Below, one piece after another: positions 7,398-45,707 of a stretch of DNA of 64,000 nucleotides. The notes under the pieces were generated by a model. The model ran no database searches, was not told the origin of the DNA, and worked only from the letters and a program-made list of their open reading frames with translations. This stretch comes from a phage: the NCBI GenBank assembly GCA_025677605.1, contig GCA_025677605.1_4110.1; one strand, 5' to 3'. Position 1 is the stretch's first letter; each line of letters begins with the position of its first letter. A program made the translations under genes and the position numbers.

Positions 7398-7816
7398 CAA
7401 ATAGTCCTCATTGTACTCATAGCTTTTAGTGTTTCGTACATATGACCGTATTTGTGACATAGCTGTAAATCAGTCATTGGGTCGTTAGTACGCATCAGTG
7501 CCATGTCATCAATCATTTCTTCAGTGCATAGTACTGCTACACTAGTGAGGGTATCGTTCAAACCTGGTTCATTGAATTTAGCAAATGGAACCTTGCCCTG
7601 TTTGGATAGATTCTCGTAATGAGTGGTTAATTTATCTTGGTTGCCAGCATTGAGAATTACAATAGTTTCGTGCTCATTATACCATTTATCGATTAGAGTA
7701 CTGAATACTGAACCTTCATAATCTTTGACGAGTTTAATACCAGCATGAAATGCCTGAATGCCAGCCTGAACACCCTGACAGTACATGTTTGTTAAGCAAT
7801 ATAGTTTCACTTCCAT
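7397..7816 (-). CDS. hypothetical protein (139 aa); weak resemblance to PTH2-type fold
   Basis: ORF-track ORF. The pattern QAGIQAFHAG...W...ETIVIL...L..L...GKVPF..F.EPG...TLTSVAVL loosely recalls peptidyl-tRNA hydrolase 2-like proteins. This is unverified. Confidence 0.55.
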   Translation of the reverse strand: MEVKLYCLTNMYCQGVQAGIQAFHAGIKLVKDYEGSVFSTLIDKWYNEHETIVILNAGNQDKLTTHYENLSKQGKVPFAKFNEPGLNDTLTSVAVLCTEEMIDDMALMRTNDPMTDLQLCHKYGHMYETLKAMSTMRTI

Positions 7817-8034
7817 ACCTCTTGTTTTTCTACATATCCTTTACCATCACAATCTGGACATGCATAATATCGACGAAATTCTTCATCGGGAACTTGTTGT
7901 GTTCCGTTACATTTAGGACAAATGCGACGAACACCAGAAATAATACGTTCATGATGCTCAGCTTGTTTAGCTGAATCAAAAATGCGACCATCTTCAGTTT
8001 GATATTTTTCAACCTGAACATAAATTACTTTCAT
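7807..8034 (-). CDS. small zinc-finger protein (DnaJ CR-type CxxCxGxG repeats)
   Basis: CPKCNGTQ ... CPDCDGKGY in a 75-aa protein. Confidence 0.6.
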   Translation of the reverse strand: MKVIYVQVEKYQTEDGRIFDSAKQAEHHERIISGVRRICPKCNGTQQVPDEEFRRYYACPDCDGKGYVEKQEVWK

Positions 8035-8321
8035 TTTATATCCTTATAAAAAGTTAAATCTTCAGTGCTTAATTGTACAAAACATTTGTTAGTTTCATTG
8101 TCAACCAGAATTTCAACATACACCTTCACTTCATGAATTGTTACAATTCTATGAATCACACCAATAGTAGTTCCATCTATATATGGTAGCTCAACCCAAC
8201 GACCAACCAATTTATCACTTAAATGGTCTTTCATTTGTTGGTTGGTATCATTGATTATTGCATCGAGTGATTTTTTAAAAAAGTTAAATTCGGTTAATGC
8301 ACTATCAATCATGTCATGCAT
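8031..8321 (-). CDS. family A small protein
   Basis: Helical N-terminus followed by SDKLVGRWVELP and a beta-rich C-terminus. Confidence 0.6.
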   Translation of the reverse strand: MHDMIDSALTEFNFFKKSLDAIINDTNQQMKDHLSDKLVGRWVELPYIDGTTIGVIHRIVTIHEVKVYVEILVDNETNKCFVQLSTEDLTFYKDIK

Positions 8322-8326
8322 AATAA

Positions 8327-9070
8327 TTACCTTTTGAATCGACTAAATGAATATTCGTCTTTTTCTTTACGCAAATAACGCATCTTACCACCTTGTGGGG
8401 TAGCAATAGTCAAATCACCAGTAAGAAACTGACTGTCAATCCAGATACGGTTACCATAAATGAGGGGATCAAACACGGCAGTATGCCCACTAAGTACATA
8501 ATCTACGTTGGTAATACGTGATGCATTAAAGACGTTGTTGGCTTTACAGAAATCAAATGTCTTTCTGTCCCATAGGCATGACTCAATTGTATCACTGGAC
8601 ATTGATTTTGTCCCAGTAATGAACTTATTCCAGTCAGTGTGCTTAAGGTCTACACTTGCATGTACGAGGCCAATCTTGAGTCCTCTGTGATTGATTTGGA
8701 TAATCATAGGTAGCTGGTTCAAGTACTGACGGAAGAATTCCACTCCTGATACACCAACTTCTTCCAGGAACTTATCGCCCCCATTCTGTGTCCAGCAATG
8801 ATACCAGTCACGATGAGTTGCAGAATCAATACACATCGATTCATGATTGCCCATGATCATATATCGATTCTCAGCGAATAAAAACTCAAACAAAAGGTGA
8901 GCACTTTGCTCACCTCTGTCAATTAAATCGCCTAAACTGAATACATAATCTTCAGGAGTAATACCAAATTCTTTCTTGGTATGTTCCCATAGTTTTGCAT
9001 TACCGTGAATGTCTCCTACTATATACAAATCTTTTTCATCAGGAACTGTTACTTCTAAGAAATGTTTCAT
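8327..9070 (-). CDS. PPP-family Ser/Thr protein phosphatase (lambda PPase / PrpE-like)
   Basis: Motifs GDIHGN, GDLIDRG, GNHE, VHA and GHT occur in canonical order. Confidence 0.85.
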   Translation of the reverse strand: MKHFLEVTVPDEKDLYIVGDIHGNAKLWEHTKKEFGITPEDYVFSLGDLIDRGEQSAHLLFEFLFAENRYMIMGNHESMCIDSATHRDWYHCWTQNGGDKFLEEVGVSGVEFFRQYLNQLPMIIQINHRGLKIGLVHASVDLKHTDWNKFITGTKSMSSDTIESCLWDRKTFDFCKANNVFNASRITNVDYVLSGHTAVFDPLIYGNRIWIDSQFLTGDLTIATPQGGKMRYLRKEKDEYSFSRFKR

Positions 9071-9321
9071 TGTTCTTTAATCCATATAATTTTATCATAG
9101 GTGACAACTTGAGTATTGGCAATTTGGTCATTAACATAGCAATCTACGTAATATCGCACATCACCATAATATGTTCCCATATCTCTTATGCATATTTTTT
9201 GCCAACCTCTGGAGTGTTTAAGAAGAATTTCTTGACCAATATATTTGTGCTTAGCACGTTGGACAAAATCATCAGATAACGATTGTAACATCTTTAACTG
9301 TTCAATTTCCGTCTTTGTCAT
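9067..9321 (-). CDS. family A small protein
   Basis: Motif KHKYIGQEILL followed by a beta-rich C-terminus. Confidence 0.6.
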   Translation of the reverse strand: MTKTEIEQLKMLQSLSDDFVQRAKHKYIGQEILLKHSRGWQKICIRDMGTYYGDVRYYVDCYVNDQIANTQVVTYDKIIWIKEQ

Positions 9322-9544
9322 GTTTCTTCTTCTTGAATTTTGTTAGTGTATCGTAAAAATCTTTACAGATTGAAATGAAAAGATACACCAACGACACAGG
9401 CCACAGTACTGATAACATAGAGCAGGTACTAATATTAATCATTGTGGTAGGGGTATCTTTAAAAGAACCCCAATTGATGATAAGAAAAGTACTGATAAAT
9501 GTACTCAGTACTCCTACACCATACAAAGCAAAAAATAAAATCAT
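9302..9544 (-). CDS. small membrane protein (2 predicted TM helices)
   Basis: Hydrophobic stretches ILFFALYGVGVLSTFISTFLII and CSMLSVLWPVSLVYLFISI. Confidence 0.55.
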   Translation of the reverse strand: MILFFALYGVGVLSTFISTFLIINWGSFKDTPTTMINISTCSMLSVLWPVSLVYLFISICKDFYDTLTKFKKKKHDKDGN

Positions 9545-9889
9545 TTATTCCTCTTCTATTAGTTCTAAACGATCTAAACGGTAAGTGAATCCGTACCATT
9601 CAGAACTTTTTGGATTTTCATATTCAACATCAACATAGATTGATGAATTCTTTACTCGCAACAAAGTAATAAACATAACTGTATTTTCGTTGATATGAGA
9701 AGCTTCATCATCACAATAAATCCAGTCAGAATCTACTTCATCCTCCTTAGCCTTATTGATGTGGTCAATATACTCTTGAGTGAATTTTACTTTTTTGCCT
9801 ATTAATTTATTTTTTAAGGTACTAACGAATTCTGATTGAAGATCAAGGAGAGATTCGAAGTACCTTAGTTCAGATGATAACGGAACCAT
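9545..9889 (-). CDS. family A small protein
   Basis: Motif LKNKLIGKKVKF followed by a beta-rich C-terminus. Confidence 0.6.
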   Translation of the reverse strand: MVPLSSELRYFESLLDLQSEFVSTLKNKLIGKKVKFTQEYIDHINKAKEDEVDSDWIYCDDEASHINENTVMFITLLRVKNSSIYVDVEYENPKSSEWYGFTYRLDRLELIEEE

Positions 9890-10506
9890 TAATCACAGCT
9901 TCCTGAACTTGAGCTTGAACTATCACAAGAGCCACTGTCATAAGAGGAAGATGAGTCGCTATAGGATGAAGTACTGATAATTGCGGCAGTTGTTGCTGCT
10001 GTCAGTAGAACAGTGCTTGTACCATCATCAGTACTGGTAGTACTGGAAGATGCTTCCTTATCAGTTTTAGTGCTTTTGCGAGTTGTACTGGTTTTTTTGG
10101 TATTTTTAGTGCTAGTCTTGCGACCTTTTGTTTTCTTAGAAGTTTTTGCTTTTGTTTTAGTTGTTGATGCTTTTGGTTGTGGTTCTTCTTTTACTGGAAC
10201 TTCTTCAACTTCTTCCTGAACTGATTTAACTTCTTCAGCCGCACCATCAATGTAAACGTCATCAACAGTTAAAGTTGGCGTATATCCTTCAAAAACTGGT
10301 ACATCATGTACTGCTTTATCACGATTATCGTCAATGACTGGTGTCATGTCACGGCGACCCATAATAATTAGTAAACCTAGTTCTAGTACTGGCGTAAAAA
10401 TAATACCAAATACTGTGTATGCCAGTGCATTACGGTTGTAAGATTTTGCCAAAAACCAACCAATAACCAGACCAAGTACGTATAGTACGTATAGTGCATA
10501 AATCAT
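9889..10506 (-). CDS. membrane-anchored protein with S/T/K-rich low-complexity tail
   Basis: Two N-terminal hydrophobic helices, then an acidic VEEV repeat region, a TSKKTKGRKTSTKNTKKTSTTRKSTK tract, and a Ser/Cys-rich end SSSSSSGSCD. Confidence 0.6.
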   Translation of the reverse strand: MIYALYVLYVLGLVIGWFLAKSYNRNALAYTVFGIIFTPVLELGLLIIMGRRDMTPVIDDNRDKAVHDVPVFEGYTPTLTVDDVYIDGAAEEVKSVQEEVEEVPVKEEPQPKASTTKTKAKTSKKTKGRKTSTKNTKKTSTTRKSTKTDKEASSSTTSTDDGTSTVLLTAATTAAIISTSSYSDSSSSYDSGSCDSSSSSSGSCD

Positions 10507-10802
10507 AGTATGACTCCTTTAATTACAATTATTTTACCGATATCTTCGATATAATTAGAAAAGTGATAGTTGTCTTGGTATATCAACCACGCACCAAACC
10601 CATCTACTATTTCGATTATATTAATTTCTTCAATTGGATTATTTTTACATTCAGCAACTAACGGACAAAAATAATCATTTAAAATTTGAAGATATATTTT
10701 ACTTACCTCTAACCATTCAGTTCTATTATAGTATTTGTCAAAAGTAAAAGTTTCCCACAGAAGTTTATATGTTTCTTCTGCTTCATATAATATTTTAATC
10801 AT
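10503..10802 (-). CDS. hypothetical small protein (99 aa)
   Basis: ORF-track ORF with a 4-nt overlap junction. Confidence 0.55.
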   Translation of the reverse strand: MIKILYEAEETYKLLWETFTFDKYYNRTEWLEVSKIYLQILNDYFCPLVAECKNNPIEEINIIEIVDGFGAWLIYQDNYHFSNYIEDIGKIIVIKGVIL

Positions 10803-11101
10803 ATACTAATAATTTCGTTAGTGGATACTACTCTTCCGTACATCAATGGGATTACGTACACATTTGGAACCGAAATCCCCACTGATTTAATTGTATCACA
10901 TAGCTCATTATTTGTCCTGGCATTTTTGAACTTTATTTCTCTACCTTCAAATGCATCAATAACAGATTGTGAATATGAATCCATTAACACCCTGAAGTTA
11001 ATCATCATAGTTGGGTAGTCTAGTATCCCCTCAAGTCGCATATCATGGCACGTTCTGAATAGCATAATGTATGTTTTATGACAAAGTAATAGTTCATTCA
11101 T
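10799..11101 (-). CDS. hypothetical small protein (100 aa)
   Basis: ORF-track ORF with a 4-nt overlap junction. Confidence 0.55.
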   Translation of the reverse strand: MNELLLCHKTYIMLFRTCHDMRLEGILDYPTMMINFRVLMDSYSQSVIDAFEGREIKFKNARTNNELCDTIKSVGISVPNVYVIPLMYGRVVSTNEIISI

Positions 11102-11415
11102 ATGAAAATCTCATCCAGATACAATGTAGTACTGGGTCTGTCTGTATTAACATCAGTACTGCAATCAATCATCAGACCGTAGTCAGTACCCCATATTTGC
11201 TTGATATAAAGGTCATAATCACGACTGGTATTTGCTTCATATACTACATTATTATAAAAAAGATCAGTCAATTCGTAATAGAAATCTTTAACACGTTTAT
11301 TCACCTCTTTTCTGTACATATCCATCTCAACGTTATCAATGTACAATAACCATTTCAGACAATAATTAAAATGATTCTCGTACATTATTAATTTATTATA
11401 TTCTTCTTGTGTCAT
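11098..11415 (-). CDS. hypothetical small protein (105 aa)
   Basis: ORF-track ORF. Similar in size and layout to 11412..11735 (…GTDYGL.ID / …GTGYGIFVD). Confidence 0.55.
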   Translation of the reverse strand: MTQEEYNKLIMYENHFNYCLKWLLYIDNVEMDMYRKEVNKRVKDFYYELTDLFYNNVVYEANTSRDYDLYIKQIWGTDYGLMIDCSTDVNTDRPSTTLYLDEIFI

Positions 11416-11735
11416 AGTTCAATCTCTTCTATGTACATACTATTTTCTATGTACGGATCAAATGGGTGTATTTTATAATCAACGAATATTCCATATCCTG
11501 TACCAAAAACACCATGAATATATACAATATCATCTTCGCACTTAATAGTTCTGTACTTAAATCTCTTTTCCAATGATTCATATATTTCACTAATTATACA
11601 GTTAATATAGTTATATAACTGATGGTTTGATTTAGTGCATTGTTCTTCAAGAAGTATATTATATAGAATCAGAAAGTATCTGTTTATATAATTCAAATAA
11701 TCTAATTCACTTTTTGTTATTAACGTGTTGGTCAT
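11412..11735 (-). CDS. hypothetical small protein (107 aa), paralogue of 11098..11415
   Basis: Shares a C-terminal WGTDYGLMID / FGTGYGIFVD segment and an ...IEEIEL / LDEIFI end. Confidence 0.55.
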   Translation of the reverse strand: MTNTLITKSELDYLNYINRYFLILYNILLEEQCTKSNHQLYNYINCIISEIYESLEKRFKYRTIKCEDDIVYIHGVFGTGYGIFVDYKIHPFDPYIENSMYIEEIEL

Positions 11736-12051
11736 ATATAATCTCTATCTCATTTGAATCGTAATATGCTTTATGGGTTCTTGTTTTATTTTGGTATTTT
11801 ATTTTGGTTTTGATAAAATATATAACCTTTTTCCATTCATAATACACGTACTCAATTTTACCATAGTCACCAGTACTAAGTAATACTTTTTTACCTTTGT
11901 ACAGTTCTTGTAATTGTGTTTTATAATCCTCAAGAAATCTACTTTCAAAAATTTTTACATCACTTTCCATCACAAGGTCGATAAGAATAGCAAGATGCCT
12001 ATCCAATAATAGTAAGTTCTCTTGATCGTATTGCATAATATCTTTGTCCAT
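11707..12051 (-). CDS. family A small protein (start uncertain)
   Basis: Motif ELYKGKKVLLSTGDYGKIEYVYY. The ORF-track start at 12123 is a TTG and overlaps the upstream gene by 125 nt. An internal ATG was chosen without strong SD support. Confidence 0.45.
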   Translation of the reverse strand: MDKDIMQYDQENLLLLDRHLAILIDLVMESDVKIFESRFLEDYKTQLQELYKGKKVLLSTGDYGKIEYVYYEWKKVIYFIKTKIKYQNKTRTHKAYYDSNEIEIIYDQHVNNKK

Positions 12052-12307
12052 TATCAGATTTTGCCGTATACATGTATGCCCCATAAGAATATGATATGTT
12101 GGTAATTTCAACTTCTCTTCCAAGATATATAGCTTTTGTTCCTACGTATTTTTTAAGCAGTGGTGTAGTTAGATCAAGGAGATAGGTTTCAAGGAAATCG
12201 GAAATATCATAACATGGGTCTACTAATTGAGTATGAAAGAAACGACGAGTATCTCTTATCAATTTCACTTGCCTGTCATACAATTCTAATCTCGTCATAT
12301 GTTGCAT
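11999..12307 (-). CDS. family A small protein (start trimmed, uncertain)
   Basis: Motif KKYVGTKAIYLGREVEITNISY. An internal ATG was chosen to limit overlap with 12276..12557. Confidence 0.45.
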   Translation of the reverse strand: MQHMTRLELYDRQVKLIRDTRRFFHTQLVDPCYDISDFLETYLLDLTTPLLKKYVGTKAIYLGREVEITNISYSYGAYMYTAKSDNGQRYYAIRSRELTIIG

Positions 12308-12557
12308 CCCATAAAAAACCTGCTCGTTCGCACCTGTACAAAATATTACCATTCCAGGTCGCCACTTCAATAATTGTCCATGTTAAATCGGTATCATCTA
12401 GAACATTGACACCAAAAACCACTTTTGATAATTCGTTCTCGTAATTATCCATCAGTACTGATAATGATGTTAGTAATCTTTCATCGGATTCTGAAAAATA
12501 TAAACTACGTAAAATACGATAATGATAATAAAAAAACTTCAATGAATCATTATTCAT
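12276..12557 (-). CDS. hypothetical small protein (93 aa)
   Basis: ORF-track ORF. Confidence 0.55.
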   Translation of the reverse strand: MNNDSLKFFYYHYRILRSLYFSESDERLLTSLSVLMDNYENELSKVVFGVNVLDDTDLTWTIIEVATWNGNILYRCERAGFLWDATYDEIRIV

Positions 12558-12859
12558 GAAAAAATAAACCTCGAATATATTCTTGAGCGAAATGTTATAT
12601 TACTTGGGATATATTTGCAACAAAGGTATGGATATCCGTAAGTGCTGGATTCGATTTTGGTAATAATAACATCACTACCTCGATATTTGCACTGAACATT
12701 TGAGTATTTTTTATTCAAAAAGTCAAGATATTCATCATGAAAATGAATGAGTTGTTCTTCAAACTTGTATTGTTTTTCATTATACATTGCAAGAGATTCT
12801 TCTTTAAGAAGATATAATGTTTTCAATAATGCTTGGAATTCATTCGTATTCATATCCAT
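12554..12859 (-). CDS. hypothetical small protein (101 aa), possible family A
   Basis: LNKKYSNVQCKYRGSDVIITKI resembles the family A motif region. Confidence 0.55.
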   Translation of the reverse strand: MDMNTNEFQALLKTLYLLKEESLAMYNEKQYKFEEQLIHFHDEYLDFLNKKYSNVQCKYRGSDVIITKIESSTYGYPYLCCKYIPSNITFRSRIYSRFIFS

Positions 12860-13106
12860 CCACAGTAGTTATTGTTGCTCGCGTTGTGAATTGGTATCTA
12901 TGCCCATACATATCAACGCCAGATACAACTATATTATTGTTAGTATCAAGATATACTGAATCAATTTTAATAATGCGTTCCCAGTCACTTGTATCATAGA
13001 CACATTTAACATATGTATCTTTATATTTTTCTGATAGTTGCTTTACTAAATTTTTCAGTACTTGAATATGTGAATTAACAAATTGGAAATCTATATTAAT
13101 ATTCAT
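12840..13106 (-). CDS. hypothetical small protein (88 aa), possible family A
   Basis: SEKYKDTYVKCVYD followed by a beta-rich C-terminus. Confidence 0.55.
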   Translation of the reverse strand: MNINIDFQFVNSHIQVLKNLVKQLSEKYKDTYVKCVYDTSDWERIIKIDSVYLDTNNNIVVSGVDMYGHRYQFTTRATITTVDGYEYE

Positions 13107-13108
13107 GT

Positions 13109-13369
13109 TTATTCATCCGTTATAGATAATTCAGAGATAATTTTTACCATATGTTCACCCAAGAAATTGTTAGATCCAGTTAGGAATATTTTAGCTTTTA
13201 TTTTAATTTCATCACTAAGTGGAGAATAATAAATCTCTACAATTTGTCCACGTCTCCCAGTTGATAAACATGTAGCAATTTTGCCTATGTACTTGATTCG
13301 CAACTCTTCCATTAGGGAGTGCAAAACCAACTGACATTGTTTGAAATGTACATCATAACTATTATCCAT
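13109..13369 (-). CDS. family A small protein
   Basis: Motif LRIKYIGKIATC followed by a beta-rich C-terminus. Confidence 0.6.
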   Translation of the reverse strand: MDNSYDVHFKQCQLVLHSLMEELRIKYIGKIATCLSTGRRGQIVEIYYSPLSDEIKIKAKIFLTGSNNFLGEHMVKIISELSITDE

Positions 13370-13383
13370 TATATCACCTAAAT

Positions 13384-13414
13384 TAAAAGAAAAGGGATCA
13401 GTACTGATCCCTTT
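13384..13414 (-). terminator. intrinsic terminator after pseT
   Basis: Perfect 24-nt palindrome AAAGGGATCAGTACTGATCCCTTT (10-bp stem, GTAC loop) followed on the minus strand by TCTTTTA. Confidence 0.75.
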
Positions 13415-13421
13415 GTAATAA

Positions 13422-14354
13422 TCAAAATAGTCCAGGTTCCACCTGAAATACTTTCAAGCCTAGTAGCTTACGCCACATGAATACAACGGCGGCCCTGTCA
13501 TCAAATACTTTCTTAACATCGTAATGATTAACAACGTTATTCATATACAACTCGAATTTGACAACATCATCAGGACGTTTATCATCGATAGCTCGCATTA
13601 ACAATACATCGTAGGGAATGCCCCAATTCTTAAGCCACTGTTCAGTATCAGCACGACACCCTTCAGTACGCCCACTCATGACGATTACCTTACGCTTATG
13701 GAAAACAGCCTCAGCAATGACAGACAGAATTACTTCTTCATCTGGTGTATCCTGAAGGACAGTACTTTCATCAAACGGGTTACGTCCCCACTTATGAGCA
13801 AGAGTACCGTCGATATCAACAATGATAGCAGCTTCACGTGCATTACCATAGTAACCAATGTGTAATGCCTTTCTATAATAGTACGTATCTGCCATTGTGT
13901 CAATGATATCATATTGAACTGAACGCTCACGCTGGAGGTTATATTTCTTACAAAGTTTTACGAACTCTTTAATCTTAAAGAATTCATGAACATCTGCACC
14001 ACGGTCTTCATTAGGCACAAAATCATCATAGAAGTTCTTTTCTTTGTAATCATAACCATTATCTTTAGCCCAACGTTTCCATTCATCACGAAAACCTTGT
14101 TTCAGGTTCGTATCGGACACAATAATATTCCATCCATTCGCTGCTGCGGCGTTTGCTGCACTGAACTGTTGATTAGTTACGTACTTCTCGTTCGCATCAG
14201 TGAATTTATAAGCATCATGTGACCCAGCCATAGACTCTCGAATATCATCACGGTTGATGTTGATAGTCTTGGACTTTGCTTTTTTAATTTCTTGCACTGC
14301 CCACGTGGTTTTACCACATCCTGGCAATCCAACTGTTAGTGTAATAGTTGGCAT
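13422..14354 (-). CDS. pseT: polynucleotide 5'-kinase / 3'-phosphatase (T4 PseT-like)
   Basis: P-loop GLPGCGKTTWA, NINRDD, and phosphatase DxDGT motif IVDIDGTLA. Collinear with the recalled T4 Pnkp sequence, including the C-terminal ...KRPDDVVK... and W..LG...FQV segments. Confidence 0.9.
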   Translation of the reverse strand: MPTITLTVGLPGCGKTTWAVQEIKKAKSKTININRDDIRESMAGSHDAYKFTDANEKYVTNQQFSAANAAAANGWNIIVSDTNLKQGFRDEWKRWAKDNGYDYKEKNFYDDFVPNEDRGADVHEFFKIKEFVKLCKKYNLQRERSVQYDIIDTMADTYYYRKALHIGYYGNAREAAIIVDIDGTLAHKWGRNPFDESTVLQDTPDEEVILSVIAEAVFHKRKVIVMSGRTEGCRADTEQWLKNWGIPYDVLLMRAIDDKRPDDVVKFELYMNNVVNHYDVKKVFDDRAAVVFMWRKLLGLKVFQVEPGLF

Positions 14355-14666
14355 TTAATCCTCAATAAATTTCACATTCTTTAGATTGTACCACGAAAAA
14401 CGTTCATGTCGTGTGTTGTGTCCTATAGTTACTTCTACATAGCACTCGTCAGAAATGTGATGAGTAACTACATGAAATTTAACATTAACATCACTAATGA
14501 TAGTTTCGAACCATGTTTTAGTGTTGTAATCCCAGCATTCAACTTTCTTACCAATGAGTGATTTCTTGTATTGTGTAATCATATCATGAACAATTTCAGA
14601 AATAGTATTAGTTAATTCAATTTCTGCATTCATTAAATTATTAAGTTCTTTTAATGCTTTATTCAT
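14355..14666 (-). CDS. family A small protein
   Basis: Motif YKKSLIGKKVECW followed by a beta-rich C-terminus. Confidence 0.6.
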   Translation of the reverse strand: MNKALKELNNLMNAEIELTNTISEIVHDMITQYKKSLIGKKVECWDYNTKTWFETIISDVNVKFHVVTHHISDECYVEVTIGHNTRHERFSWYNLKNVKFIED

Positions 14667-14938
14667 TAGATTACCTCAATAATATCATCAATTGAGATAC
14701 CAATACAATTATCGACAGTGATATTCAATGTAAAATCATCATCTACATATACATTAGTGATTTTACCATAAACATTCATCCCATCATAAGATGATTTATA
14801 ACGTACTCTTTTGTTAATATATTTTGCACGTAGAGTATTACTCTCACGGTACAATATATCCGTCAAACATTCTGATAGTACTTTATAATATAACAAATCA
14901 CTTGAATGATTGTTTTTCATTGTATTTCCCAACTCCAA
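14666..14938 (-). CDS. family A small protein (start may be the internal ATG at 14920)
   Basis: Motif LRAKYINKRVRYK followed by a beta-rich C-terminus. Confidence 0.55.
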   Translation of the reverse strand: MELGNTMKNNHSSDLLYYKVLSECLTDILYRESNTLRAKYINKRVRYKSSYDGMNVYGKITNVYVDDDFTLNITVDNCIGISIDDIIEVI

Positions 14939-15134
14939 ATCGCTTGGAGATTTTTACAAGTACAGCTTCATCACAACGAATACTAGCAGTGTCATTGGAT
15001 GAACTGTACTTTAAGGGGGTCCACTGTAATTGAGATTCTTCAAGGAACTTGATACATCTGAAGTAATCTTTCAGAGAAAGAAACTTAACCACTGACATAT
15101 CCTGAACAATACTATGCTGAACTTCAACTTTCAT
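14898..15134 (-). CDS. hypothetical small protein (78 aa)
   Basis: ORF-track ORF. Confidence 0.5.
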   Translation of the reverse strand: MKVEVQHSIVQDMSVVKFLSLKDYFRCIKFLEESQLQWTPLKYSSSNDTASIRCDEAVLVKISKRFGVGKYNEKQSFK

Positions 15135-15143
15135 ATGAACTCC

Positions 15144-15401
15144 TTATAGTGGATCGAATTTATTTTCACGTTTTGATGTATAGCGAGTTACATCATGTAT
15201 TCTCGGCTTAACATCCTTTGGTTTCCTTTTCTTCTTATATTCAGTACTACTACACCCAAAAGTATTCTCGATTCGCTTCTTACTAATCTTCACACCTTTC
15301 ATTGAGCGTTTGTGCTGTAAATCATCGATTTCTTGTTGTATTTTCCTGAACTCAGTAGGAGAAAGGGAACCATCATTTTTATACTTAGGTTTAGCCATCA
15401 C
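15144..15401 (-). CDS. hypothetical basic protein (85 aa)
   Basis: Lys/Arg-rich (KKKRKPKDVKPR). No motif recognised. Confidence 0.55.
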   Translation of the reverse strand: MMAKPKYKNDGSLSPTEFRKIQQEIDDLQHKRSMKGVKISKKRIENTFGCSSTEYKKKRKPKDVKPRIHDVTRYTSKRENKFDPL

Positions 15402-15427
15402 TTCTCCTTGTGCTGGGCTAGTTAGTA

Positions 15428-16573
15428 CTAAAAATCCTTTAGTACATCTTTGTAGTACTTTAGTAAAGTCTCTTTATAATCGACACTTTTGCCATTGTAC
15501 AACGCAAAGGCCAAGCCTTGTCGGTTCAATACATTAGGTAAATCTTGCTGAACCTTTTGAGCGAATTCCTTTCGCTCTAAGTGCTTGTATGCATGGACGA
15601 AGCTTTCTACCTCATCTTGTAAAGCATTATAGCACGAAAATACCAATTGTTCCATTCTTAATATCTTATCCATAGCATATGTATCAGTACTGAACAATTG
15701 TTTTAAGTCATCACTTGCACCAGTCAGTACAGCTTCATATAAATGGGAATCAATAAGAATGGAATCTTTTGTTAAATGCAAAGAGCAATACCAGTCAGTT
15801 TTGATTTTGCACATTGTACCATCTTTCATTATACACACAAAACCTTCAATGTCAAGCATAGAACGTACTTTATCGATTGACTCTTTAAATGTAGGCATAA
15901 TCGGGAATGTATGATGAATGTCATTACCTGTCATATTAGTACTGTACTGTGAAAGGCATGGAAACTTATCACGTAGTGCTTTACCGCATAACAACTCACC
16001 ACTAATACGATGACGAACGTTAAGAACAAATAACTGTTCCACCTGATATGGTAACACAATTCGATACTCTGGGCTTGTGTATTCCAGATTCACAGTATAG
16101 CCCAAACGGTCTGCTTCATCAATGTATTGATAGAGATTTTGGTTCTCGTTCAAAAGTCGAGTACTGTTAATAGCATGGTCAGAAGATAACGAAGTGTGTG
16201 ATTTGCAACGGATTTCACCATCATTATCACGGAATGTGCTGATGATAGATCCATCTAGCTTAGGCATTACAACCGCAATATCATCACAGGTAGTATCAGC
16301 ACTGAACATTGTGTACGGGTTTTCATATGCATTGAAGAACTTTTTCATTGTACGTGCTGCACAACGAATCATAATTCCGTTGGAATCAATTTCCCACATA
16401 GAACCACGAGTTTCTAGTGCATTTTTATTTGTGAAATCGGTATAAGATGCCAGACGATAGGTGAATACACGGTATAAACCACCACCAGGGCTTGTGTGAT
16501 CTATATAGAAAAATGCATCATTAGATTCACATAGTTCCATTAAATCATTGTATATTTCTCGTAAATTACTCAT
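15428..16573 (-). CDS. rnlA: RNA ligase 1 (T4 RnlA-like)
   Basis: N-terminus IYNDLMELCE...FFY...YRVFTYRLASYTDF...ALETRG parallels recalled T4 Rnl1 LFNNLMELCK..FFY..YRIFSYNYASYSDW..ALECRG. It has a nucleotidyl-lysine motif PKLDGS and IKTDWYCSLH (T4 has IKSDWYVSLH). Length is 381 aa versus 374 aa. Confidence 0.9.
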   Translation of the reverse strand: MSNLREIYNDLMELCESNDAFFYIDHTSPGGGLYRVFTYRLASYTDFTNKNALETRGSMWEIDSNGIMIRCAARTMKKFFNAYENPYTMFSADTTCDDIAVVMPKLDGSIISTFRDNDGEIRCKSHTSLSSDHAINSTRLLNENQNLYQYIDEADRLGYTVNLEYTSPEYRIVLPYQVEQLFVLNVRHRISGELLCGKALRDKFPCLSQYSTNMTGNDIHHTFPIMPTFKESIDKVRSMLDIEGFVCIMKDGTMCKIKTDWYCSLHLTKDSILIDSHLYEAVLTGASDDLKQLFSTDTYAMDKILRMEQLVFSCYNALQDEVESFVHAYKHLERKEFAQKVQQDLPNVLNRQGLAFALYNGKSVDYKETLLKYYKDVLKDF

Positions 16574-16833
16574 CTAATTACCTCTATATCTACATCTGTG
16601 CCATAGTAGGAAACGTAACCATTATCTGACTTACATTGAATTGATAACTCTGATTCATAGTATGTTACTTTGATCACTGTTAGAACTTTTTCTTCAATTT
16701 CTCCCGTTAAATAATCCATTTCACGAACACGAATGTTGGTTCCTTTTGGGAGTTCTTGTGCAATTTTATTAACAAGTTCAAAAGCAGCTTCTTCAAGTGT
16801 GTGCAACAATTGCAATCTATCTTGGATATTCAT
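16570..16833 (-). CDS. family A small protein (87 aa; start trimmed)
   Basis: The ATG at 16833 (MNIQDRLQLL...) is preceded by GGTGGAAA and lies just after the upstream stop. Motif ELPKGTNIRV. Confidence 0.55.
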   Translation of the reverse strand: MNIQDRLQLLHTLEEAAFELVNKIAQELPKGTNIRVREMDYLTGEIEEKVLTVIKVTYYESELSIQCKSDNGYVSYYGTDVDIEVIR

Positions 16834-16834
16834 A

Positions 16835-17524
16835 TTATTTCCACCAACTGGTATCACGTCCATTAGATAAAGACTCATTGTACTGATGCCTGAAATTTGT
16901 ATCAGGATTATTAATCATAGTACTAATAAAATCAAATTTAGTGTTCTCTTGGATATATTCAATAACACTATCTTTAAACTTGATAGTACTGAAATCTAAA
17001 TCCAAATGTTCATACGATACTGGATGACAAAACTCATGTGTACGCAATGATCTCATCGTATCCTTAATGTATTGTACGGTGTTAATCATTGCTTCATAGT
17101 CTGGCATTGCACGCATCATCATAAGCTGGAAGTGTTCTTCCTCTGTCATTGATTCATCTAAATCAATAACAACTTCTTCATTCTTAGAGTCATATACTTT
17201 AATCTTACTATTCGTAGGGTCAAGCATAGCCCAATCAGGGTACAGGCATGTTTTCCAGAAAGGATTATTACACTGAAACATACTGACCAGTACTTGATTT
17301 TTATCGAAGATTGCAAAACCAAGATCATTACTGGGCTGTACTTCACACACATATATATCATATGCAGAGTCTTCAGAGCAGAATGATCCAACTACATTTG
17401 ATATATGTGAATATGGAGTTTCTCTTGATTTTAATTCAAAGGCTCTCTCCATGCGGTTAATCTGTGGTTGTAAAGTAATTACACCCCTTAGTACATATAA
17501 AATTCTATCTAAATCTTTAATCAA
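16835..17524 (-). CDS. family B-like protein (outlier copy, divergent)
   Basis: Contains MTEEEHFQLMMMRA, i.e. the acidic-x-FQ core without the Ser. Confidence 0.55.
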   Translation of the reverse strand: MIKDLDRILYVLRGVITLQPQINRMERAFELKSRETPYSHISNVVGSFCSEDSAYDIYVCEVQPSNDLGFAIFDKNQVLVSMFQCNNPFWKTCLYPDWAMLDPTNSKIKVYDSKNEEVVIDLDESMTEEEHFQLMMMRAMPDYEAMINTVQYIKDTMRSLRTHEFCHPVSYEHLDLDFSTIKFKDSVIEYIQENTKFDFISTMINNPDTNFRHQYNESLSNGRDTSWWK

Positions 17525-18099
17525 AATTCTATCCCCGTGTCGGTTAATTTTGCCCCGTCCATGTACCTGACAGTTATTTCAATACGACTCTCGGCACTCA
17601 ATTTCTGAAGCTCACTGTAGTACAATTTAAATTCTTCAAAAAACTCAAACGGTGGAATATCGAATAGAGTACTCATCTGGAAGTGCTCAGGTAAGCCAAA
17701 ATCTAATATATTAATCTTAGGAATAAGACCATCTGATGCTGCACCTTCAGGTGTACTGCTGTCTGCTATATAAAACATAGAATCACCATGACGCTGAATG
17801 ACGAATATACAATCATCTTCAGTTACATAAATTATATTTCCTAGGTATGGATCATTATCACACCACTCATCATGGACGAGTTCTTCAACTTGAAGTAAAT
17901 CTTTTATAATTCCCTGACCACTATCATCAACTCGAATATGTAAACCAGAATCATCTTTACTCAACCAGCGGTATCTTGAATCACATCCTGATTCCATAAA
18001 TGGATATTTTGAAAAATCCATGTCAGTACCGTTATAATACCAATTGTACCACTCGTTACGCATAGTAATCAGCTTAGTACTTAATTCTACAATATTCAT
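17521..18099 (-). CDS. family B (FQxS) protein, outlier copy
   Basis: Contains GLPEHFQMSTLFD. Confidence 0.6.
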   Translation of the reverse strand: MNIVELSTKLITMRNEWYNWYYNGTDMDFSKYPFMESGCDSRYRWLSKDDSGLHIRVDDSGQGIIKDLLQVEELVHDEWCDNDPYLGNIIYVTEDDCIFVIQRHGDSMFYIADSSTPEGAASDGLIPKINILDFGLPEHFQMSTLFDIPPFEFFEEFKLYYSELQKLSAESRIEITVRYMDGAKLTDTGIEF

Positions 18100-18395
18100 T
18101 TTAGTTTTAACCTTTTAGCAACATATTCTCTTAATTTTCCATCTGGAAGTTCTACTACAAAATATGGATGATATGTTAGTCTCAGAGTAACCCTTTTTAT
18201 TACACCTCGGTCATATGATATGGGAATTCCATAGGGATCATCAATTTCAACCTCCTTACCATATAACATTGCATTGCATGTATAGGTGTATTGCGTGAGT
18301 ATACCGAGCATAGTACTAACGGAACCACCACTGCTCCATCTGGCAACATCAGCAAGCATTGTTATAGTACTACTAACTAATTGTATTTTGTCCAT
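18096..18395 (-). CDS. family A small protein
   Basis: Motif NAMLYGKEVEID followed by a beta-rich C-terminus. Confidence 0.55.
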   Translation of the reverse strand: MDKIQLVSSTITMLADVARWSSGGSVSTMLGILTQYTYTCNAMLYGKEVEIDDPYGIPISYDRGVIKRVTLRLTYHPYFVVELPDGKLREYVAKRLKLK

Positions 18396-18404
18396 AATGT
18401 ACCT

Positions 18405-18431
18405 ACAAAAAAGACCAGCAATCCATGCTGG
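18405..18431 (-). terminator. intrinsic terminator
   Basis: Minus strand reads CCAGCA-TGGAT-TGCTGG followed by TCTTTTTTG. Confidence 0.7.
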
Positions 18432-18438
18432 CCTGTAC

Positions 18439-18717
18439 TTATTTTAATTCTTTATACGTGTATATACCAACAGTATCATTGGAGAAAATAATATAAAAAT
18501 ACACACCATGTGTATCAAAATCAATTTCATCAATGATACCTGATTTATTCATTGATTTATGTGTAACTTCTTTATTAGTATAAAGTGGAATAAACTCAGA
18601 AGAAAAATCATCTATCATAGCCCTTATATCGTCTATGTATGGTTTATTTTTAATATACATATCACCATAAAGTTCTAAAAGATATTCATATGTCCACACA
18701 TCTCTTTGTAAATTCAT
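18439..18717 (-). CDS. hypothetical small protein (92 aa), possible family A
   Basis: IPLYTNKEVTHKS followed by a beta-rich C-terminus. Confidence 0.55.
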   Translation of the reverse strand: MNLQRDVWTYEYLLELYGDMYIKNKPYIDDIRAMIDDFSSEFIPLYTNKEVTHKSMNKSGIIDEIDFDTHGVYFYIIFSNDTVGIYTYKELK

Positions 18718-18725
18718 AACTTACC

Positions 18726-19454
18726 TTAGAAGTAAATCATACCAAGTAATTCAGAATCGTCTGGTCTGTTATAATCTTGCTTCTTAACTTTGAAGTAGAA
18801 AGACTCATGTTCTTCTAAATTATATCTCTTTTTAAGGCAACGTGTGTAAGTCTGACAGTTCGGATGTACCCATTCATAAATGTGTACACCATTCTCATCA
18901 TAACCATTTACACTACAACGATTGCCTTCGTGCTTTTTGTAGTTTTTACTCTTTTCAGTAAATTCACGAGCACATGTGGTATGAGGCTTTTTATAATCAA
19001 AAGGTACTTCAGTTATACGGAAATAATAGAAAAATTCGTCTTCATCATATCCCAAGAGCACTGTGTTAGTTTCACGTACATTGTAATGATTCTTACTTTT
19101 TGCTTCATTTTCGTATATATCTTTCAGTACTTCATCAAATACTACATCACTTGCAGCATTCGGGTTTGACACACCTGATACACGGCGTTCAATAATAAAA
19201 TCGGTAAACTTACGTTCTTCTTCAATATCGCCGTTCATATACAGACTAACAAACTTATCCTTGTATGTTTTGACTGAATATTGTTTACCTTGCACTTCAC
19301 TGTATACATCAGCTAGTAAATTCTCTTGTCCGCATTGGACACCACTTACTGAATATGCAGTTGCATGTTCTGCCATTACGGATGTTAGCATTTGGAAATT
19401 TGCAATGTTTAATTGGTTTGCTAACTCGCTGGCAAATCTGATACGGTCAATCAC
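18726..19454 (-). CDS. hypothetical protein (242 aa), GTG start
   Basis: The start codon reads GTG with AAGGAG 8 nt upstream. No motif recognised. Confidence 0.6.
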   Translation of the reverse strand: MIDRIRFASELANQLNIANFQMLTSVMAEHATAYSVSGVQCGQENLLADVYSEVQGKQYSVKTYKDKFVSLYMNGDIEEERKFTDFIIERRVSGVSNPNAASDVVFDEVLKDIYENEAKSKNHYNVRETNTVLLGYDEDEFFYYFRITEVPFDYKKPHTTCAREFTEKSKNYKKHEGNRCSVNGYDENGVHIYEWVHPNCQTYTRCLKKRYNLEEHESFYFKVKKQDYNRPDDSELLGMIYF

Positions 19455-19512
19455 TCTACACGCTCCTTGTGTTAGTTATTATTCCATACCAACAATTATA
19501 TCACTACTTATA

Positions 19513-19815
19513 CTACTGTCCCGCTTTATAACAATAAAGATTCTCTAATTTGAAGTCCGCAAGGTCACATTCAGAACGTACTCGGTTCTTGTTCCAGTAC
19601 AAAATACGAATCCTTTCATAATCACGATAAACACTAATAATGCTTTTGTGCTTGGATTTATAGTATTCCTGCACAGTCACAAGATACACGGTCCTCAATA
19701 AAGACTTAATGGGATAGGGCATATTCTGTGCTGTAGTAATACTATAAATCATCTTCATTGTTTCAGCAATAAGTACTTCATTTGTTTGATTTGTCATTGA
19801 AATCCTTACATACAC
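19513..19815 (-). CDS. hypothetical protein (100 aa)
   Basis: ORF-track ORF. Confidence 0.5.
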   Translation of the reverse strand: MYVRISMTNQTNEVLIAETMKMIYSITTAQNMPYPIKSLLRTVYLVTVQEYYKSKHKSIISVYRDYERIRILYWNKNRVRSECDLADFKLENLYCYKAGQ

Positions 19816-19960
19816 TATGTAAAGTAAATCCTAAACCTACACCGACAATTGGAAATAGTAAATTGATATACCATGTATTCATTGTTGAAAATGAATAAGC
19901 ACCTGCAACTGTCAGTACTGCAAGAGAAAAAAGACTCCAGATAAAAAATAATGTTCTCAT
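19778..19960 (-). CDS. small membrane protein (60 aa, 2 TM)
   Basis: Hydrophobic segments LFFIWSLFSLAVLTVAGAY and INLLFPIVGVGLGFTL. Confidence 0.5.
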   Translation of the reverse strand: MRTLFFIWSLFSLAVLTVAGAYSFSTMNTWYINLLFPIVGVGLGFTLHSVCKDFNDKSNK

Positions 19961-20247
19961 AAAAAGGTTACCTCATCGAATGAAAAGTTTAAGTACGTTG
20001 GTGAATTTTGGTCTAAACTATGAATAGTAATATGACCATTGAAATAAAAAGAAACATCCTCTGCTTGAAGTTTTGGATATTTTCTAGTACTGAAATATCT
20101 TCCTACTACTAAGTCAGAAAACATATTTCTGTATTCTTGTGATACGTTTTTGTATAGGTTATGTAGAGCACTTTCTTGTGAATCGAAAGTAATGGAATAA
20201 TCTTTCACCAATATAGCATATGTTTTCTGTATTAAAATGATATTCAT
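19957..20247 (-). CDS. family A small protein
   Basis: Motif FSDLVVGRYFST followed by a beta-rich C-terminus. Confidence 0.55.
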   Translation of the reverse strand: MNIILIQKTYAILVKDYSITFDSQESALHNLYKNVSQEYRNMFSDLVVGRYFSTRKYPKLQAEDVSFYFNGHITIHSLDQNSPTYLNFSFDEVTFL

Positions 20248-20507
20248 AAATCACCTAATACCTCAAAAATTATTGTTATTGGGTATACTGGGTTATCAGA
20301 TGAAGTAACACATACTATTAGTACGTTTTTTCCAGGTGCTACATCCTTTACAGTGAAATTAATATTATTAAGAATCAGTGATTTACCAATATAATGTTCT
20401 TTCAAAGATTCTATAAAATAGTCCAGTACTGGATTATCTACACTATAGGATAACTCAGTACTGGCTATCATTTTATATGTATGAACTATTAGTTCAGCTT
20501 TAGTCAT
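20244..20507 (-). CDS. family A small protein (87 aa; start trimmed)
   Basis: The ATG at 20507 (MTKAELIVHTYK...) gives only an 8-nt overlap with the upstream gene. Motif LKEHYIGKSLIL. Confidence 0.55.
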   Translation of the reverse strand: MTKAELIVHTYKMIASTELSYSVDNPVLDYFIESLKEHYIGKSLILNNINFTVKDVAPGKNVLIVCVTSSDNPVYPITIIFEVLGDL

Positions 20508-20700
20508 GTACACGCTCACAATTAAGGCAATAAATGCACTCAATGTCTGGTCGCCATGATTTATCAAAATCTTTGTGCTGTTCTTCAGTGTATTCCGCAT
20601 CATCATTGATGGGAAAGAAATCCCCAGCACCAGTGGCCCAGTCTGAATCTAAGCGGAAACGAGCTAATTGAGTACTGTTACAGTATGGACATTTATTCAA
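20500..20700 (-). CDS. small zinc-ribbon protein (66 aa)
   Basis: CPYC near the N-terminus and CIYCLNC near the C-terminus. Confidence 0.55.
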   Translation of the reverse strand: MNKCPYCNSTQLARFRLDSDWATGAGDFFPINDDAEYTEEQHKDFDKSWRPDIECIYCLNCERVHD

Positions 20701-20980
20701 AATTTATTCCTTCTAACTGATATACGTTTAATGAAAATGACCCACTATTATTATCGCATCTGAAACACAGTGTTAAAGAACCATTAAAACTAACGACATC
20801 AGTACAGGTACATTTTTCACCATTGGATATGATAGATTTTCCTATATATAAATCTCTTACTATAGTACGGTAATGTTGCCATAAAAAATAATACACACTT
20901 TCATAGTACTCATCTGTTACATATGACAAGTATAAGAAGCTATAAAATACTTGTATTTCCTTTAAGTTGTTTTTCATCAT
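20693..20980 (-). CDS. family A small protein (tandem cluster 1 of 5)
   Basis: RDLYIGKSIISNGEKCTCTDVVSFNGSLTLCF. Confidence 0.6.
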   Translation of the reverse strand: MMKNNLKEIQVFYSFLYLSYVTDEYYESVYYFLWQHYRTIVRDLYIGKSIISNGEKCTCTDVVSFNGSLTLCFRCDNNSGSFSLNVYQLEGINFE

Positions 20981-21240
20981 TTAAAATCCAGTAAATTTAT
21001 ACCAATGAAGTCCCCGTCTCTGCGGTAGAATTCTAAACGCAACCTACCTCTATGACTTACTACATCAGTACAACGATAGTTTTTATTATTTCTACGTATT
21101 GGAAGTCCTATAAAATGATGTTGTATCTCAGATAGATAATTTGACCATATTTTATTACGTACTTCATAGTAGAAACCTAATTCGTTATTCATATCATCAT
21201 ATAAAAGTTGATATGTGAATTGTAAATCATGATAGTTCAT
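20977..21240 (-). CDS. family A small protein (tandem cluster 2 of 5)
   Basis: MNYHDLQFTYQLLY...HHFIGLPIRRNNKNYRCTDVVSHRGRLRLEF. Confidence 0.6.
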   Translation of the reverse strand: MNYHDLQFTYQLLYDDMNNELGFYYEVRNKIWSNYLSEIQHHFIGLPIRRNNKNYRCTDVVSHRGRLRLEFYRRDGDFIGINLLDFK

Positions 21241-21512
21241 AGGTACTCCAAATCAACAAATCCGCTTTTCGACTCTTCATTGTTATAGTAAATTCCAACA
21301 AGACTTCCATTATAACTTTTAATTCTGATAATACGTACAGTCATGTCGTCAATCATATATTCTTTATCAACAAAAATCTCGTTAATCATTGCCAAATATT
21401 CACACCACAATGTAAGAAAAAAATCTCGTTCATCGTAAGTTAATATTCCTTCACCACGTTCATATTGTTCATGAAGAATTTTGTACGTGAATTGTAAATC
21501 CTTATAATTCAT
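21237..21512 (-). CDS. family A small protein (tandem cluster 3 of 5; start trimmed)
   Basis: The internal ATG gives MNYKDLQFTYKIL..., matching sibling N-termini. Motif VRIIRIKSYNGSLVGIYY. Confidence 0.6.
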   Translation of the reverse strand: MNYKDLQFTYKILHEQYERGEGILTYDERDFFLTLWCEYLAMINEIFVDKEYMIDDMTVRIIRIKSYNGSLVGIYYNNEESKSGFVDLEYL

Positions 21513-21768
21513 AGATATAAATCTCATGTAATCCATCACTAGAATCTCTACCCCTGAAGCATAGATCCCCGTTGTAACTATCAACTTGAAATATTTTTAC
21601 TGTTTTACCTTCGTATTGAATTATAGTACCTATAAAATGTTCACGTAAAGATTTTATATAATCACTCCACAAACGATGATAAAATGCATTATCCATGCAG
21701 TTGTTATCAGCGTAACGATACATATAAAATGTTAGTTTATAGGTGAAATGTAAATCCTTATAATTCAT
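21502..21768 (-). CDS. family A small protein (tandem cluster 4 of 5)
   Basis: MNYKDLHFTYKLTF...EHFIGTIIQYEGKTVKIFQVDSYNGDLCF. Confidence 0.6.
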   Translation of the reverse strand: MNYKDLHFTYKLTFYMYRYADNNCMDNAFYHRLWSDYIKSLREHFIGTIIQYEGKTVKIFQVDSYNGDLCFRGRDSSDGLHEIYIYEL

Positions 21769-22040
21769 TATAATATCTCTAAATTTATAGATTGTTGTCC
21801 AATAATAGAATCAGTATAGAATAACACAATTTCACCACCTATACTATCAACGCGTGTTAGCTTACGCATTTCACCATCTATAAAGATTTCGTTAGCGTAA
21901 AAGTAATTTTGAATCATTGTAAAATATTCATTCCATATAATATAAACTGGATTTTTATAAATGATAGGATTATGTACTTTACTTTCAATATATGTTTTGT
22001 ATAAAGCTTTATATGTTCTATTCAGTACTCGATAATCCAT
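21768..22040 (-). CDS. family A small protein (tandem cluster 5 of 5)
   Basis: MDYRVLNRTYKALY...FIDGEMRKLTRVDSIGGEIVLFY. Confidence 0.6.
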   Translation of the reverse strand: MDYRVLNRTYKALYKTYIESKVHNPIIYKNPVYIIWNEYFTMIQNYFYANEIFIDGEMRKLTRVDSIGGEIVLFYTDSIIGQQSINLEIL

Positions 22041-22085: not shown

Positions 22086-22700
22086 TTATTCATCGTCGTC
22101 ATCATCATCCAGTTCGATGTAGATTTCACCATCATCATCATCAAAGCTTTCAACGATAACACCTGGAATGTTTAGAGTACTGAATAATACGTCATATTTT
22201 TCATCTGAAGGAATTAAGACAAATTCTTCAATATCTTGAATATCTGGCATCTTATCTTCAGGGATACCCATCTGAAGAAGTGATTGAACCATCTTTGCTT
22301 TGAATTCTTCAAATTTCTCTTTAGATGCAAAATCCATGATAAGTTGTGCTACATATCCATCTTCATTACCAAAAGCAATTGCCATTTGTGGATCTGTACC
22401 TACTAAACACCATGTAGTTTTTGCTGTGTTAGTTTCAATAAATTTATGAATTTCTTTGATTACATCATGTCTTGAACTGTTTACGATGCAATCTAGATTC
22501 TCAATGCCGTCCATAATACCAGTACTGTCATTGGTTTCTTCAAACTCACCGAAGTCACCCAGAACATACTGTACACCATCATCATAAATGGAATATGCAT
22601 AATCTAAATCAGCAAGAGAATCACATTTACCTCGAATTGGACGAAGGGATAGCCCAAGGCGTAGATAACGAAAATAAGTATTACTGTTTGTATTTGTCAA
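22086..22700 (-). CDS. hypothetical acidic protein (poly-Asp C-terminus); TTG start proposed
   Basis: The TTG at 22700 lies 6 nt after AAGGAGA. The ORF-track start at 22742 is also TTG but has no SD and overlaps by 62 nt. The C-terminus is DDDDGEIYIELDDDDDDE. Confidence 0.5.
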   Translation of the reverse strand: MTNTNSNTYFRYLRLGLSLRPIRGKCDSLADLDYAYSIYDDGVQYVLGDFGEFEETNDSTGIMDGIENLDCIVNSSRHDVIKEIHKFIETNTAKTTWCLVGTDPQMAIAFGNEDGYVAQLIMDFASKEKFEEFKAKMVQSLLQMGIPEDKMPDIQDIEEFVLIPSDEKYDVLFSTLNIPGVIVESFDDDDGEIYIELDDDDDDE

Positions 22701-45112: not shown

Positions 45113-45143
45113 GATATGATCCTTTTCGTATTAGATGAAAAAG

Positions 45144-45172
45144 ATTATATCATGCACAGAAGGAGGTGTCAA
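45144..45172 (-). promoter_or_regulatory. perfect-consensus sigma70 promoter TTGACA-N17-TATAAT
   Basis: Read on the minus strand. The -35 overlaps the stop of 45169..45705. An AAGGA SD and the ATG of 44615..45112 follow about 30 nt downstream. Confidence 0.7.
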
Positions 45173-45705: not shown

Positions 45706-45707
45706 AA

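Follow-up and report, generated by a model that had tools for sequence, protein, structure and literature searches.

The window analysed here is a stretch of 64,000 nucleotides (nt) of phage DNA (GenBank assembly GCA_025677605.1, contig GCA_025677605.1_4110.1) from an Asteriusvirus, a RaK2-like jumbo coliphage, and carries all its genes on the minus strand. The region from 8031 to 22040 harbours an array of small genes whose products share a helical N-terminus, a (K/H)(Y/F)(I/L)GK-type junction and a beta-rich C-terminus. This small helix-beta family has 26 members, 25 within 8031–22040 and one at 51075–51419, with 23 of them clear and three marginal. A sequence-only reading of the window had proposed about 18 clear and up to about 26 paralogues, and profile tests place the number near its upper figure. 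The open reading frames (ORFs), motifs and N-termini quoted in that reading were all found, on the minus strand. Over 10 kb, Escherichia phage A4 shows 98.7% identity to the window, while PBECO4, 121Q, phAPEC6, G17 and others show about 86% identity covering only 64–69% of those 10 kb.

Of the 149 minus-strand ORFs, pairwise BLASTP connects just the six at 20244–22040, with E-values of 2e-10 to 5e-3 and 23–36% identity. Since BLASTP reaches this block only, the wider family claim needed profile methods. An iterative hidden Markov model (HMM) search within the window, started from the tandem block at 20693–22040, stalled at the level of shuffled decoys (13.8–17.6 bits), and the family is therefore not extendable by that search alone. 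For an HMM-HMM comparison, the window ORFs were pooled with the small coding sequences of phages PBECO4, Turkey3, ph0011 and Turkey5, and all 3,741 cluster pairs were compared. Three sub-networks were obtained, with probabilities of 40–97% and a constant motif register in every alignment. The first joins the tandem block with 19957 and 20244 (ORFs named by their start), the second 11098 with 11412, and the third 9067, 9545, 14355, 13109, 8031, 14666 and 12840. An unrelated family at 57–62 kb served as positive control and gave 92–98%. HMM-HMM comparison had been put forward as the way to find out whether most of these small proteins are unrelated to one another; by this measure, they are not.

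Membership was assessed by leaving out one cluster at a time. In each run, the remaining candidates were realigned and made into a profile, with which the left-out protein was scored alongside 59 other small window proteins and 30 shuffles. More than three quarters of the candidates (23/26) beat all 59 negatives, these 23 scoring 8.5–26.2 bits, with a best negative per run of 4.9–8.7 bits and shuffled candidates at 8.9 bits or less. The marginal ones are 11098, 16570 and 21768, each of which is tied in by separate evidence; for 21768–22040 this is a BLAST match to the tandem block. When the profile is trained on the 19 scattered members, the seven block members rank over the negatives, and the same holds with the roles reversed (Mann-Whitney p = 2.5e-5 each way). 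Four further ORFs (14898–15134, 19513–19815, 22681–22971 and 22964–23257) were rejected based on negative-like scores in the leave-one-cluster-out test. The ORFs for membrane, basic and Zn-ribbon proteins within 8031–22040 were also judged to be non-members.

These results can be set against the idea that several unrelated sets of helix-plus-strand ORFs merely look alike through an AT-rich composition and a short motif. Such an explanation would fit the restriction of pairwise BLAST links to the block, several cross-group scores at noise level and a non-member reaching 13.8 bits. It would also fit the PHROGs assignments, which separate the 26 members into 17 families (the largest being phrog_32291 and phrog_21004, with five members each), all labelled ‘unknown function’. 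However, it is at odds with 23 of the 26 candidates scoring above all same-composition negatives and their own shuffles, with the recognition of held-out genes of other genomes, and with HMM-HMM alignments that are consistently in register. In addition, two distant members share a predicted layout of helix, Gly junction and beta-meander. Several separate families are therefore improbable, and the leave-one-cluster-out test, the HMM-HMM links and the held-out genes in other phages support, at the level of sequence profiles, one divergent family.

The members are described below from the low-coordinate end, all on the minus strand and with bits referring to the leave-one-cluster-out score unless stated. 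The first, 8031–8321 (96 amino acids (aa), motif DKLVGRWV), is weakly supported, with 9.5 bits where the best negative has 7.6; in the all-versus-all run, hhalign aligns 91 of its columns with 14355–14666. It is followed by 9067–9321 (84 aa, KHKYIGQEI, 15.7 bits), with hhalign probabilities of 74% to 9545–9889 and 63% to 14355–14666, and by 9545–9889 itself (114 aa, NKLIGKKV, 14.6 bits), which has an insertion in the beta part. The 99-aa member 10503–10802 reaches 8.5 bits, and 13.9 bits with the block-only profile. For 10799–11101 (100 aa, 13.1 bits), orthologue clustering found no orthologue in PBECO4, Turkey3, ph0011 or Turkey5. The marginal member 11098–11415 (105 aa, 6.4 bits) is connected by hhalign to 11412–11735 (107 aa, 11.5 bits) with 86% over 100 columns. 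Then come 11707–12036 (109 aa from the ATG used in A4, ELYKGKKV, 26.2 bits) and 11999–12307 (102 aa, KKYVGTKA, 12.7 bits). The latter is unannotated in A4, where it falls within a 240-nt stretch between A4_437 and A4_436, and its product is identical to P0031 in a public protein collection. The run ends with 12276–12557 (93 aa, 19.2 bits; 15.6 bits with the block-only profile), 12554–12859 (101 aa, 23.2 bits), 12840–13106 (88 aa, 19.0 bits) and 13109–13369 (86 aa, IKYIGKIA), which scores 9.3 bits against a best negative of 5.9 and has an hhalign probability of 74% to PBECO4 gp123.

Further along lie 14355–14666 (103 aa, KSLIGKKV, 19.8 bits), which abuts the start of pseT, and 14666–14920 (84 aa, RAKYINKRV, 12.3 bits). 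The marginal member 16570–16833 (87 aa, 6.4 bits) overlaps the start of rnlA by 4 nt. It is followed by 18096–18395 (99 aa, AMLYGKEV, 10.4 bits), 18439–18717 (92 aa, 13.1 bits) and, near the tandem block, 19957–20247 (96 aa, 18.1 bits), which is recruited by the block HMM. The member 20244–20507 (87 aa from the ATG used in A4, EHYIGKSL, 15.8 bits) matches members of the block by BLASTP (E 4e-4 and 4e-3). The tandem block consists of 20693–20980, 20977–21240, 21237–21512, 21502–21768 and 21768–22040, connected by mutual BLASTP matches (E 2e-10 to 5e-3, 24–36% identity). The near-identical N-termini described for this block are of the MNYKDLQFTYK type and are located at 20977–21768. Family genes are tightly packed, with start/stop overlaps of 1–11 nt, and every copy is intact. 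The outlying member 51075–51419 (114 aa) scores 11.7 bits against a best negative of 6.0.

In the A4 annotation, the 8031–22040 block contains a Ser/Thr phosphatase, PseT, RnlA and some 30 ‘hypothetical proteins’. The three enzymes are non-members on the minus strand: the phosphatase at 8327–9070 and, as also indicated by sequence comparison, a PseT-type polynucleotide kinase/3'-phosphatase at 13422–14354 and an RnlA-type RNA ligase 1 at 15428–16573. A Pth2-like hydrolase and a DNA ligase are annotated directly upstream of the block in relatives. Other small minus-strand ORFs occur in and around the array. Between 20244 and 20693 there is a 66-aa Zn-ribbon ORF with a CxxC...CxxC pattern (window 20500–20700), the counterpart of which in Klebsiella phage Muenster carries an HHpred note pointing to TFIIS-type ribbons. 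An ORF with a DnaJ-type CxxCxGxG pattern flanks the array (7807–8034), and predicted membrane proteins are interspersed in it at 9302–9544, 9889–10506 and 19778–19960, the second having a long low-complexity tail rich in Ser, Thr and Lys.

Elsewhere in the window, also on the minus strand, a separate paralogue family of 65–96 aa, unrelated to the small helix-beta family, occupies 47716–48140 and 56973–62509. Its members are 56973, 60024, 59379, 58949, 62285, 60437, 60682, 47913 and 47716, with hhalign probabilities of 92–98%. One BLASTP cluster is formed by 42889, 49195, 49650 and 50095 (window 42889–50577). A looser set (45708, 51431, 57408, 58605, 55227 and 43359; window 43359–58946) is joined only by short aligned stretches, and a small motif may be all that these sequences have in common.

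Two members were modelled with AlphaFold2, using paralogue and orthologue alignments as input. The model of 21502–21768 (mean predicted local distance difference test (pLDDT) 92.5, predicted template modelling score (pTM) 0.78) has helices at residues 3–22 and 28–45 and strands at 49–52, 55–65, 68–75 and 80–84. For 14355–14666 (pLDDT 87.2, pTM 0.69), one long helix at 2–37 is followed by six strands. The motif Gly is located at the helix-to-strand junction. The layout of a helical N-terminus, a (K/H)(Y/F)(I/L)GK junction and a beta-rich C-terminus thus holds in the models, and the helical hairpin expected from residue patterns appears in 21502–21768, while 14355–14666 has a single long helix instead. 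A Foldseek search against BFVD retrieved a full-length match to the RaK2 protein H6X4R2 (TM-score 0.71, 16% identity, 87 columns). Among 105 members from six genomes, the conserved columns correspond to a hydrophobic core, with helical i/i+4 and strand i/i+2 spacing, plus Gly47. A partial preference for a polar residue exists at position 9 (Thr, 60%) and at position 48 (Lys, 46%), and the remaining positions are near maximally variable. In these 105 sequences, no pattern of Cys, His, Asp or Ser suggestive of catalysis or metal binding was found.

The family had not been recognised in the sequence-only reading, and database searches agree with this. A Pfam-A scan of all 26 members gave no match (best E-value 0.0095, every hit below the cutoff and unrelated) and the PDB gave no sequence match, so no known small domain family with an assigned function was retrieved. 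A HMMER search of 1.84 billion representative proteins resulted in 28 hits of 84–114 aa, all from this phage group, except for one spurious repetitive protein of 4463 aa. A second large-database search with the 26-member profile returned eight proteins, all from close relatives in the same phage group, and sub-family profiles brought no improvement. Relatives scoring 20–30 bits, such as those in Muenster, stay hidden in such searches because E-values scale to billions of sequences.

The distribution in other phages was assessed with an HMM built solely from the 26 window proteins, which also picks up genes without an orthologue among the window members. Held-out genes of PBECO4 and Turkey5 score 17–28 bits against a maximum of 11.0 over 623 shuffles, e.g. 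PBECO4 16273–16539 (25.4 bits), PBECO4 24668–24928 (26.5 bits) and Turkey5 23815–24111 (28.5 bits). The Alcyoneusvirus Muenster, a Klebsiella phage, has at least eight small ORFs that reach 11.2–26.9 bits against a shuffle maximum of 10.9. Muenster shares with the window a syntenic set of genes for a methyltransferase, a nucleotidyltransferase, rnlA, pseT, a phosphatase, Pth and a ligase, and its RnlA is 64.6% identical to that of the window. The best-conserved member is 16570–16833, with 78–93% identity in three Asteriusvirus relatives and 53% in Turkey5. It also has a reciprocal counterpart in Muenster, MU_13711, the ORF directly before rnlA (31% identity over 84 aa), which scores 26.9 bits with the family HMM. 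Among 19 small ORFs in the rnlA-pseT region of the T4-like phage phiD1, the family HMM found no member (best 3.6 bits), and in Yersinia phage fHe-Yen9-04, where synteny is kept, it found nothing above noise.

The co-location with rnlA, pseT, phosphatases and Pth2, kept across two genera, raises the question of whether the members could be accessory subunits or specificity adaptors of RNA repair, i.e. small Sm/SH3-like proteins that would bind RNA or RnlA/PseT and direct the repair of different cleaved tRNAs. The position of 16570–16833, overlapping the rnlA start, far better conserved than the other members and with its Muenster counterpart, would agree with this, as would the abutment of 14355–14666 on the pseT start. 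The predicted N-terminal helix and bent beta meander moreover resemble the Sm/Hfq topology in the models. A relationship to Hfq/Sm was rejected at the sequence level, the family alignment giving an hhalign probability of 0.06% against E. coli Hfq (with an Hfq sequence entered by hand). A basic RNA-binding surface like that of Sm/Hfq is likewise not seen: the median isoelectric point is 5.5, only two of the 26 members are basic, and most are acidic or neutral, which makes a general affinity for nucleic acids less likely. Nor are any basic or aromatic residues seen to be conserved on the surface. Twenty-five copies far exceed the needs of two enzymes, T4-type phages have the same rnlA-pseT module without members, and fHe-Yen9-04 has the synteny without a family signal. 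A general role as repair adaptors is thus quite unlikely, although the two members preceding rnlA and pseT might function in connection with these enzymes.

The array region differs strongly between relatives. Relative to their best PBECO4 matches, family members have a median identity of 38% and their neighbours one of 80% (89% for the polynucleotide kinase and 84% for RnlA). DNA without a blastn match to relatives is confined to 9095–13382, 14388–14879, 18118–18345 and 21074–22023, which consist almost entirely of family genes. Copy number, which the sequence-only reading had suggested comparing among relatives, indeed varies: 25 copies are present in the region here and 17–18 in four relatives, and clustering leaves many members without orthologues in close relatives. 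As an example of mosaicism, 20693–20980 has 98% identity to PBECO4, 60% to ph0011 and 29% to Turkey3. Such near-identity to one relative and about 30% to another, seen in some members, points to allele exchange. In ph0011, but not in the window, PBECO4, Turkey3 or Turkey5, an extra gene of 494 aa is inserted at 18626–20110.

Family genes differ from those of A4 by 42 synonymous and 45 non-synonymous changes, where neutrality would predict about 170 of the latter. This corresponds to a pooled ratio of non-synonymous to synonymous substitution rates (dN/dS) of 0.26, compared with 0.14 in other genes. The copies are therefore constrained by purifying selection and functional, not decaying. This bears on the view that the array is expendable filler from ORFan churn, in which duplicates in a recombination-prone hyperplastic region would each contribute little or no specific fitness. 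The variable copy number, the many members without orthologues, a divergence that is extreme relative to the neighbours and a somewhat looser constraint than in those neighbours could all be explained in this way. A dN/dS well under 1 speaks against it, as do the close packing of the genes, whose starts and stops overlap and none of which is broken, the conservation of the fold core across two genera and the confident AlphaFold2 models. Filler is consequently an unlikely explanation.

As for expression, the window contains three perfect TTGACA-N16–18-TATAAT sites, all on the coding (minus) strand, against 0.23 expected, and two of them feed the array region. One of these sigma-70 consensus promoters lies inside rnlA (15828–15855) and reads into the downstream small genes, another lies inside the cytidylyltransferase gene (23443–23471), and the remaining site is at 45144–45172. 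Terminator-like sites with a hairpin and a T-run are found at 22080–22059, 18434–18412 and 13414–13391 (minus strand), in three of the few sizeable intergenic gaps; one is directly upstream of the tandem block and one directly downstream of pseT. Mass spectrometry of phAPEC6 virions identified 62 proteins (PMC7247149). None of these are among gp358c–gp398c, which cover the array region, although small proteins can escape mass spectrometry.

Based on these observations, we consider it somewhat probable that this lineage-specific and highly diverged family of RaK2-like jumbo phages provides a repertoire of non-enzymatic binders for host takeover or counter-defence. A binder repertoire appears to be the likeliest role because conservation is limited to the hydrophobic core and one Gly, leaving the surface free to vary. 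The products are soluble proteins of about 85–115 aa, usually acidic or neutral, with a predicted layout of one or two N-terminal helices, a conserved Y/F-I/L-G-K junction and a meander of four to six strands or an SH3-like small beta domain. The family probably grew by tandem duplication within an accessory region holding rnlA, pseT, phosphatases and ligases; its copies are kept by purifying selection, and they are diverged or exchanged between phage lineages far more than their neighbours. Each copy might then act as a stoichiometric putative binder of a different host or competitor macromolecule. Production would take place off the virion, probably early, from host-sigma-70 promoters in translationally coupled operons.

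A more specific and highly doubtful variant is an ‘inhibit plus repair’ counter-defence island, in which a hypervariable repertoire of inhibitors or decoys sits beside RnlA/PseT and cassettes are swapped between co-circulating jumbo phages. The members would neutralise host nucleases targeting RNA or tRNA (anticodon nucleases of the PrrC/RloC type, toxin RNases) or other defence proteins, and RnlA and PseT would mend the damage.

Several points weigh against one family of hypervariable binders. The block-only HMM gives 14355, 13109 and 18096 just 0–2 bits, which is noise level, the non-member 43359–43790 reached 13.8 bits with the scattered-only HMM, and the most distant sub-groups are weakly linked, through transitive profile scores. 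Paralogues were present in both alignments used for modelling and could pull the two models towards one fold. A relaxed, generic promoter scan is not enriched over shuffles, enrichment being limited to the perfect-consensus sites. The pooled dN/dS of 0.26 means that there is no positive selection on a short timescale, and the deep divergence could result from old paralogue sorting or recombination rather than from an arms race. Finally, binding, targets and timing, and with them the anti-defence role, are what we infer from patterns.

In RaK2-like jumbo phages, over 80% of the genes are without known function. Here, about 25 hypothetical proteins per genome, scattered across 17 PHROGs, collapse into one family with a confident fold model. 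Where otherwise collinear relatives differ in their DNA, the differing sequence consists almost wholly of family genes, a pattern typical of host-interaction or counter-defence loci. These genes also constitute a defined and tractable gene set in phages that are under consideration for therapy.

With regard to known systems, the closest include H6X4R2 of Klebsiella phage RaK2, an uncharacterised protein of 89 aa with a full-length structural match, and the small Muenster ORFs around rnlA and pseT, which match in HMM score and synteny. These differ from the window members in having only about 16–31% identity and, being equally uncharacterised, they add distribution rather than function. SH3/Tudor-like small beta-barrels, such as 8jvz_B (a circularly permuted SH3) and 6hq9_B (the Tudor domain of ERCC6L2), may also belong among the closest known systems. 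The hyperplastic region rnlA(63)-alc-pseT.x-pseT-cd.x of T4 is similar in that its RNA ligase 1 and polynucleotide kinase genes alternate with small, uncharacterised ORFs of the early region, and its repair enzymes are homologous to those of the window (33–38% identity). In contrast, the small ORFs of the T4-like phage phiD1 show no homology to the family by HMM. Paralogue expansions have been described in other jumbo phages: paralogues account for about 10% of the proteins of RaK2 (PMC3622015), and a Zn-ribbon is present in about 35 copies in Bacillus phage G (PMC7824862). The array resembles these expansions in having many diverged small-domain copies per genome, clustered in accessory regions and mostly without database homologues. 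The searchable literature comments on RaK2 and CBB paralogues in general terms only and does not mention the present family, nor is a helix-Gly junction-small beta family singled out in it. Jumbo-phage paralogue expansion is a known kind of phenomenon, and what is added here is that this family extends into Alcyoneusvirus and, as its notable feature, that its members coincide with the hypervariable stretches of DNA.

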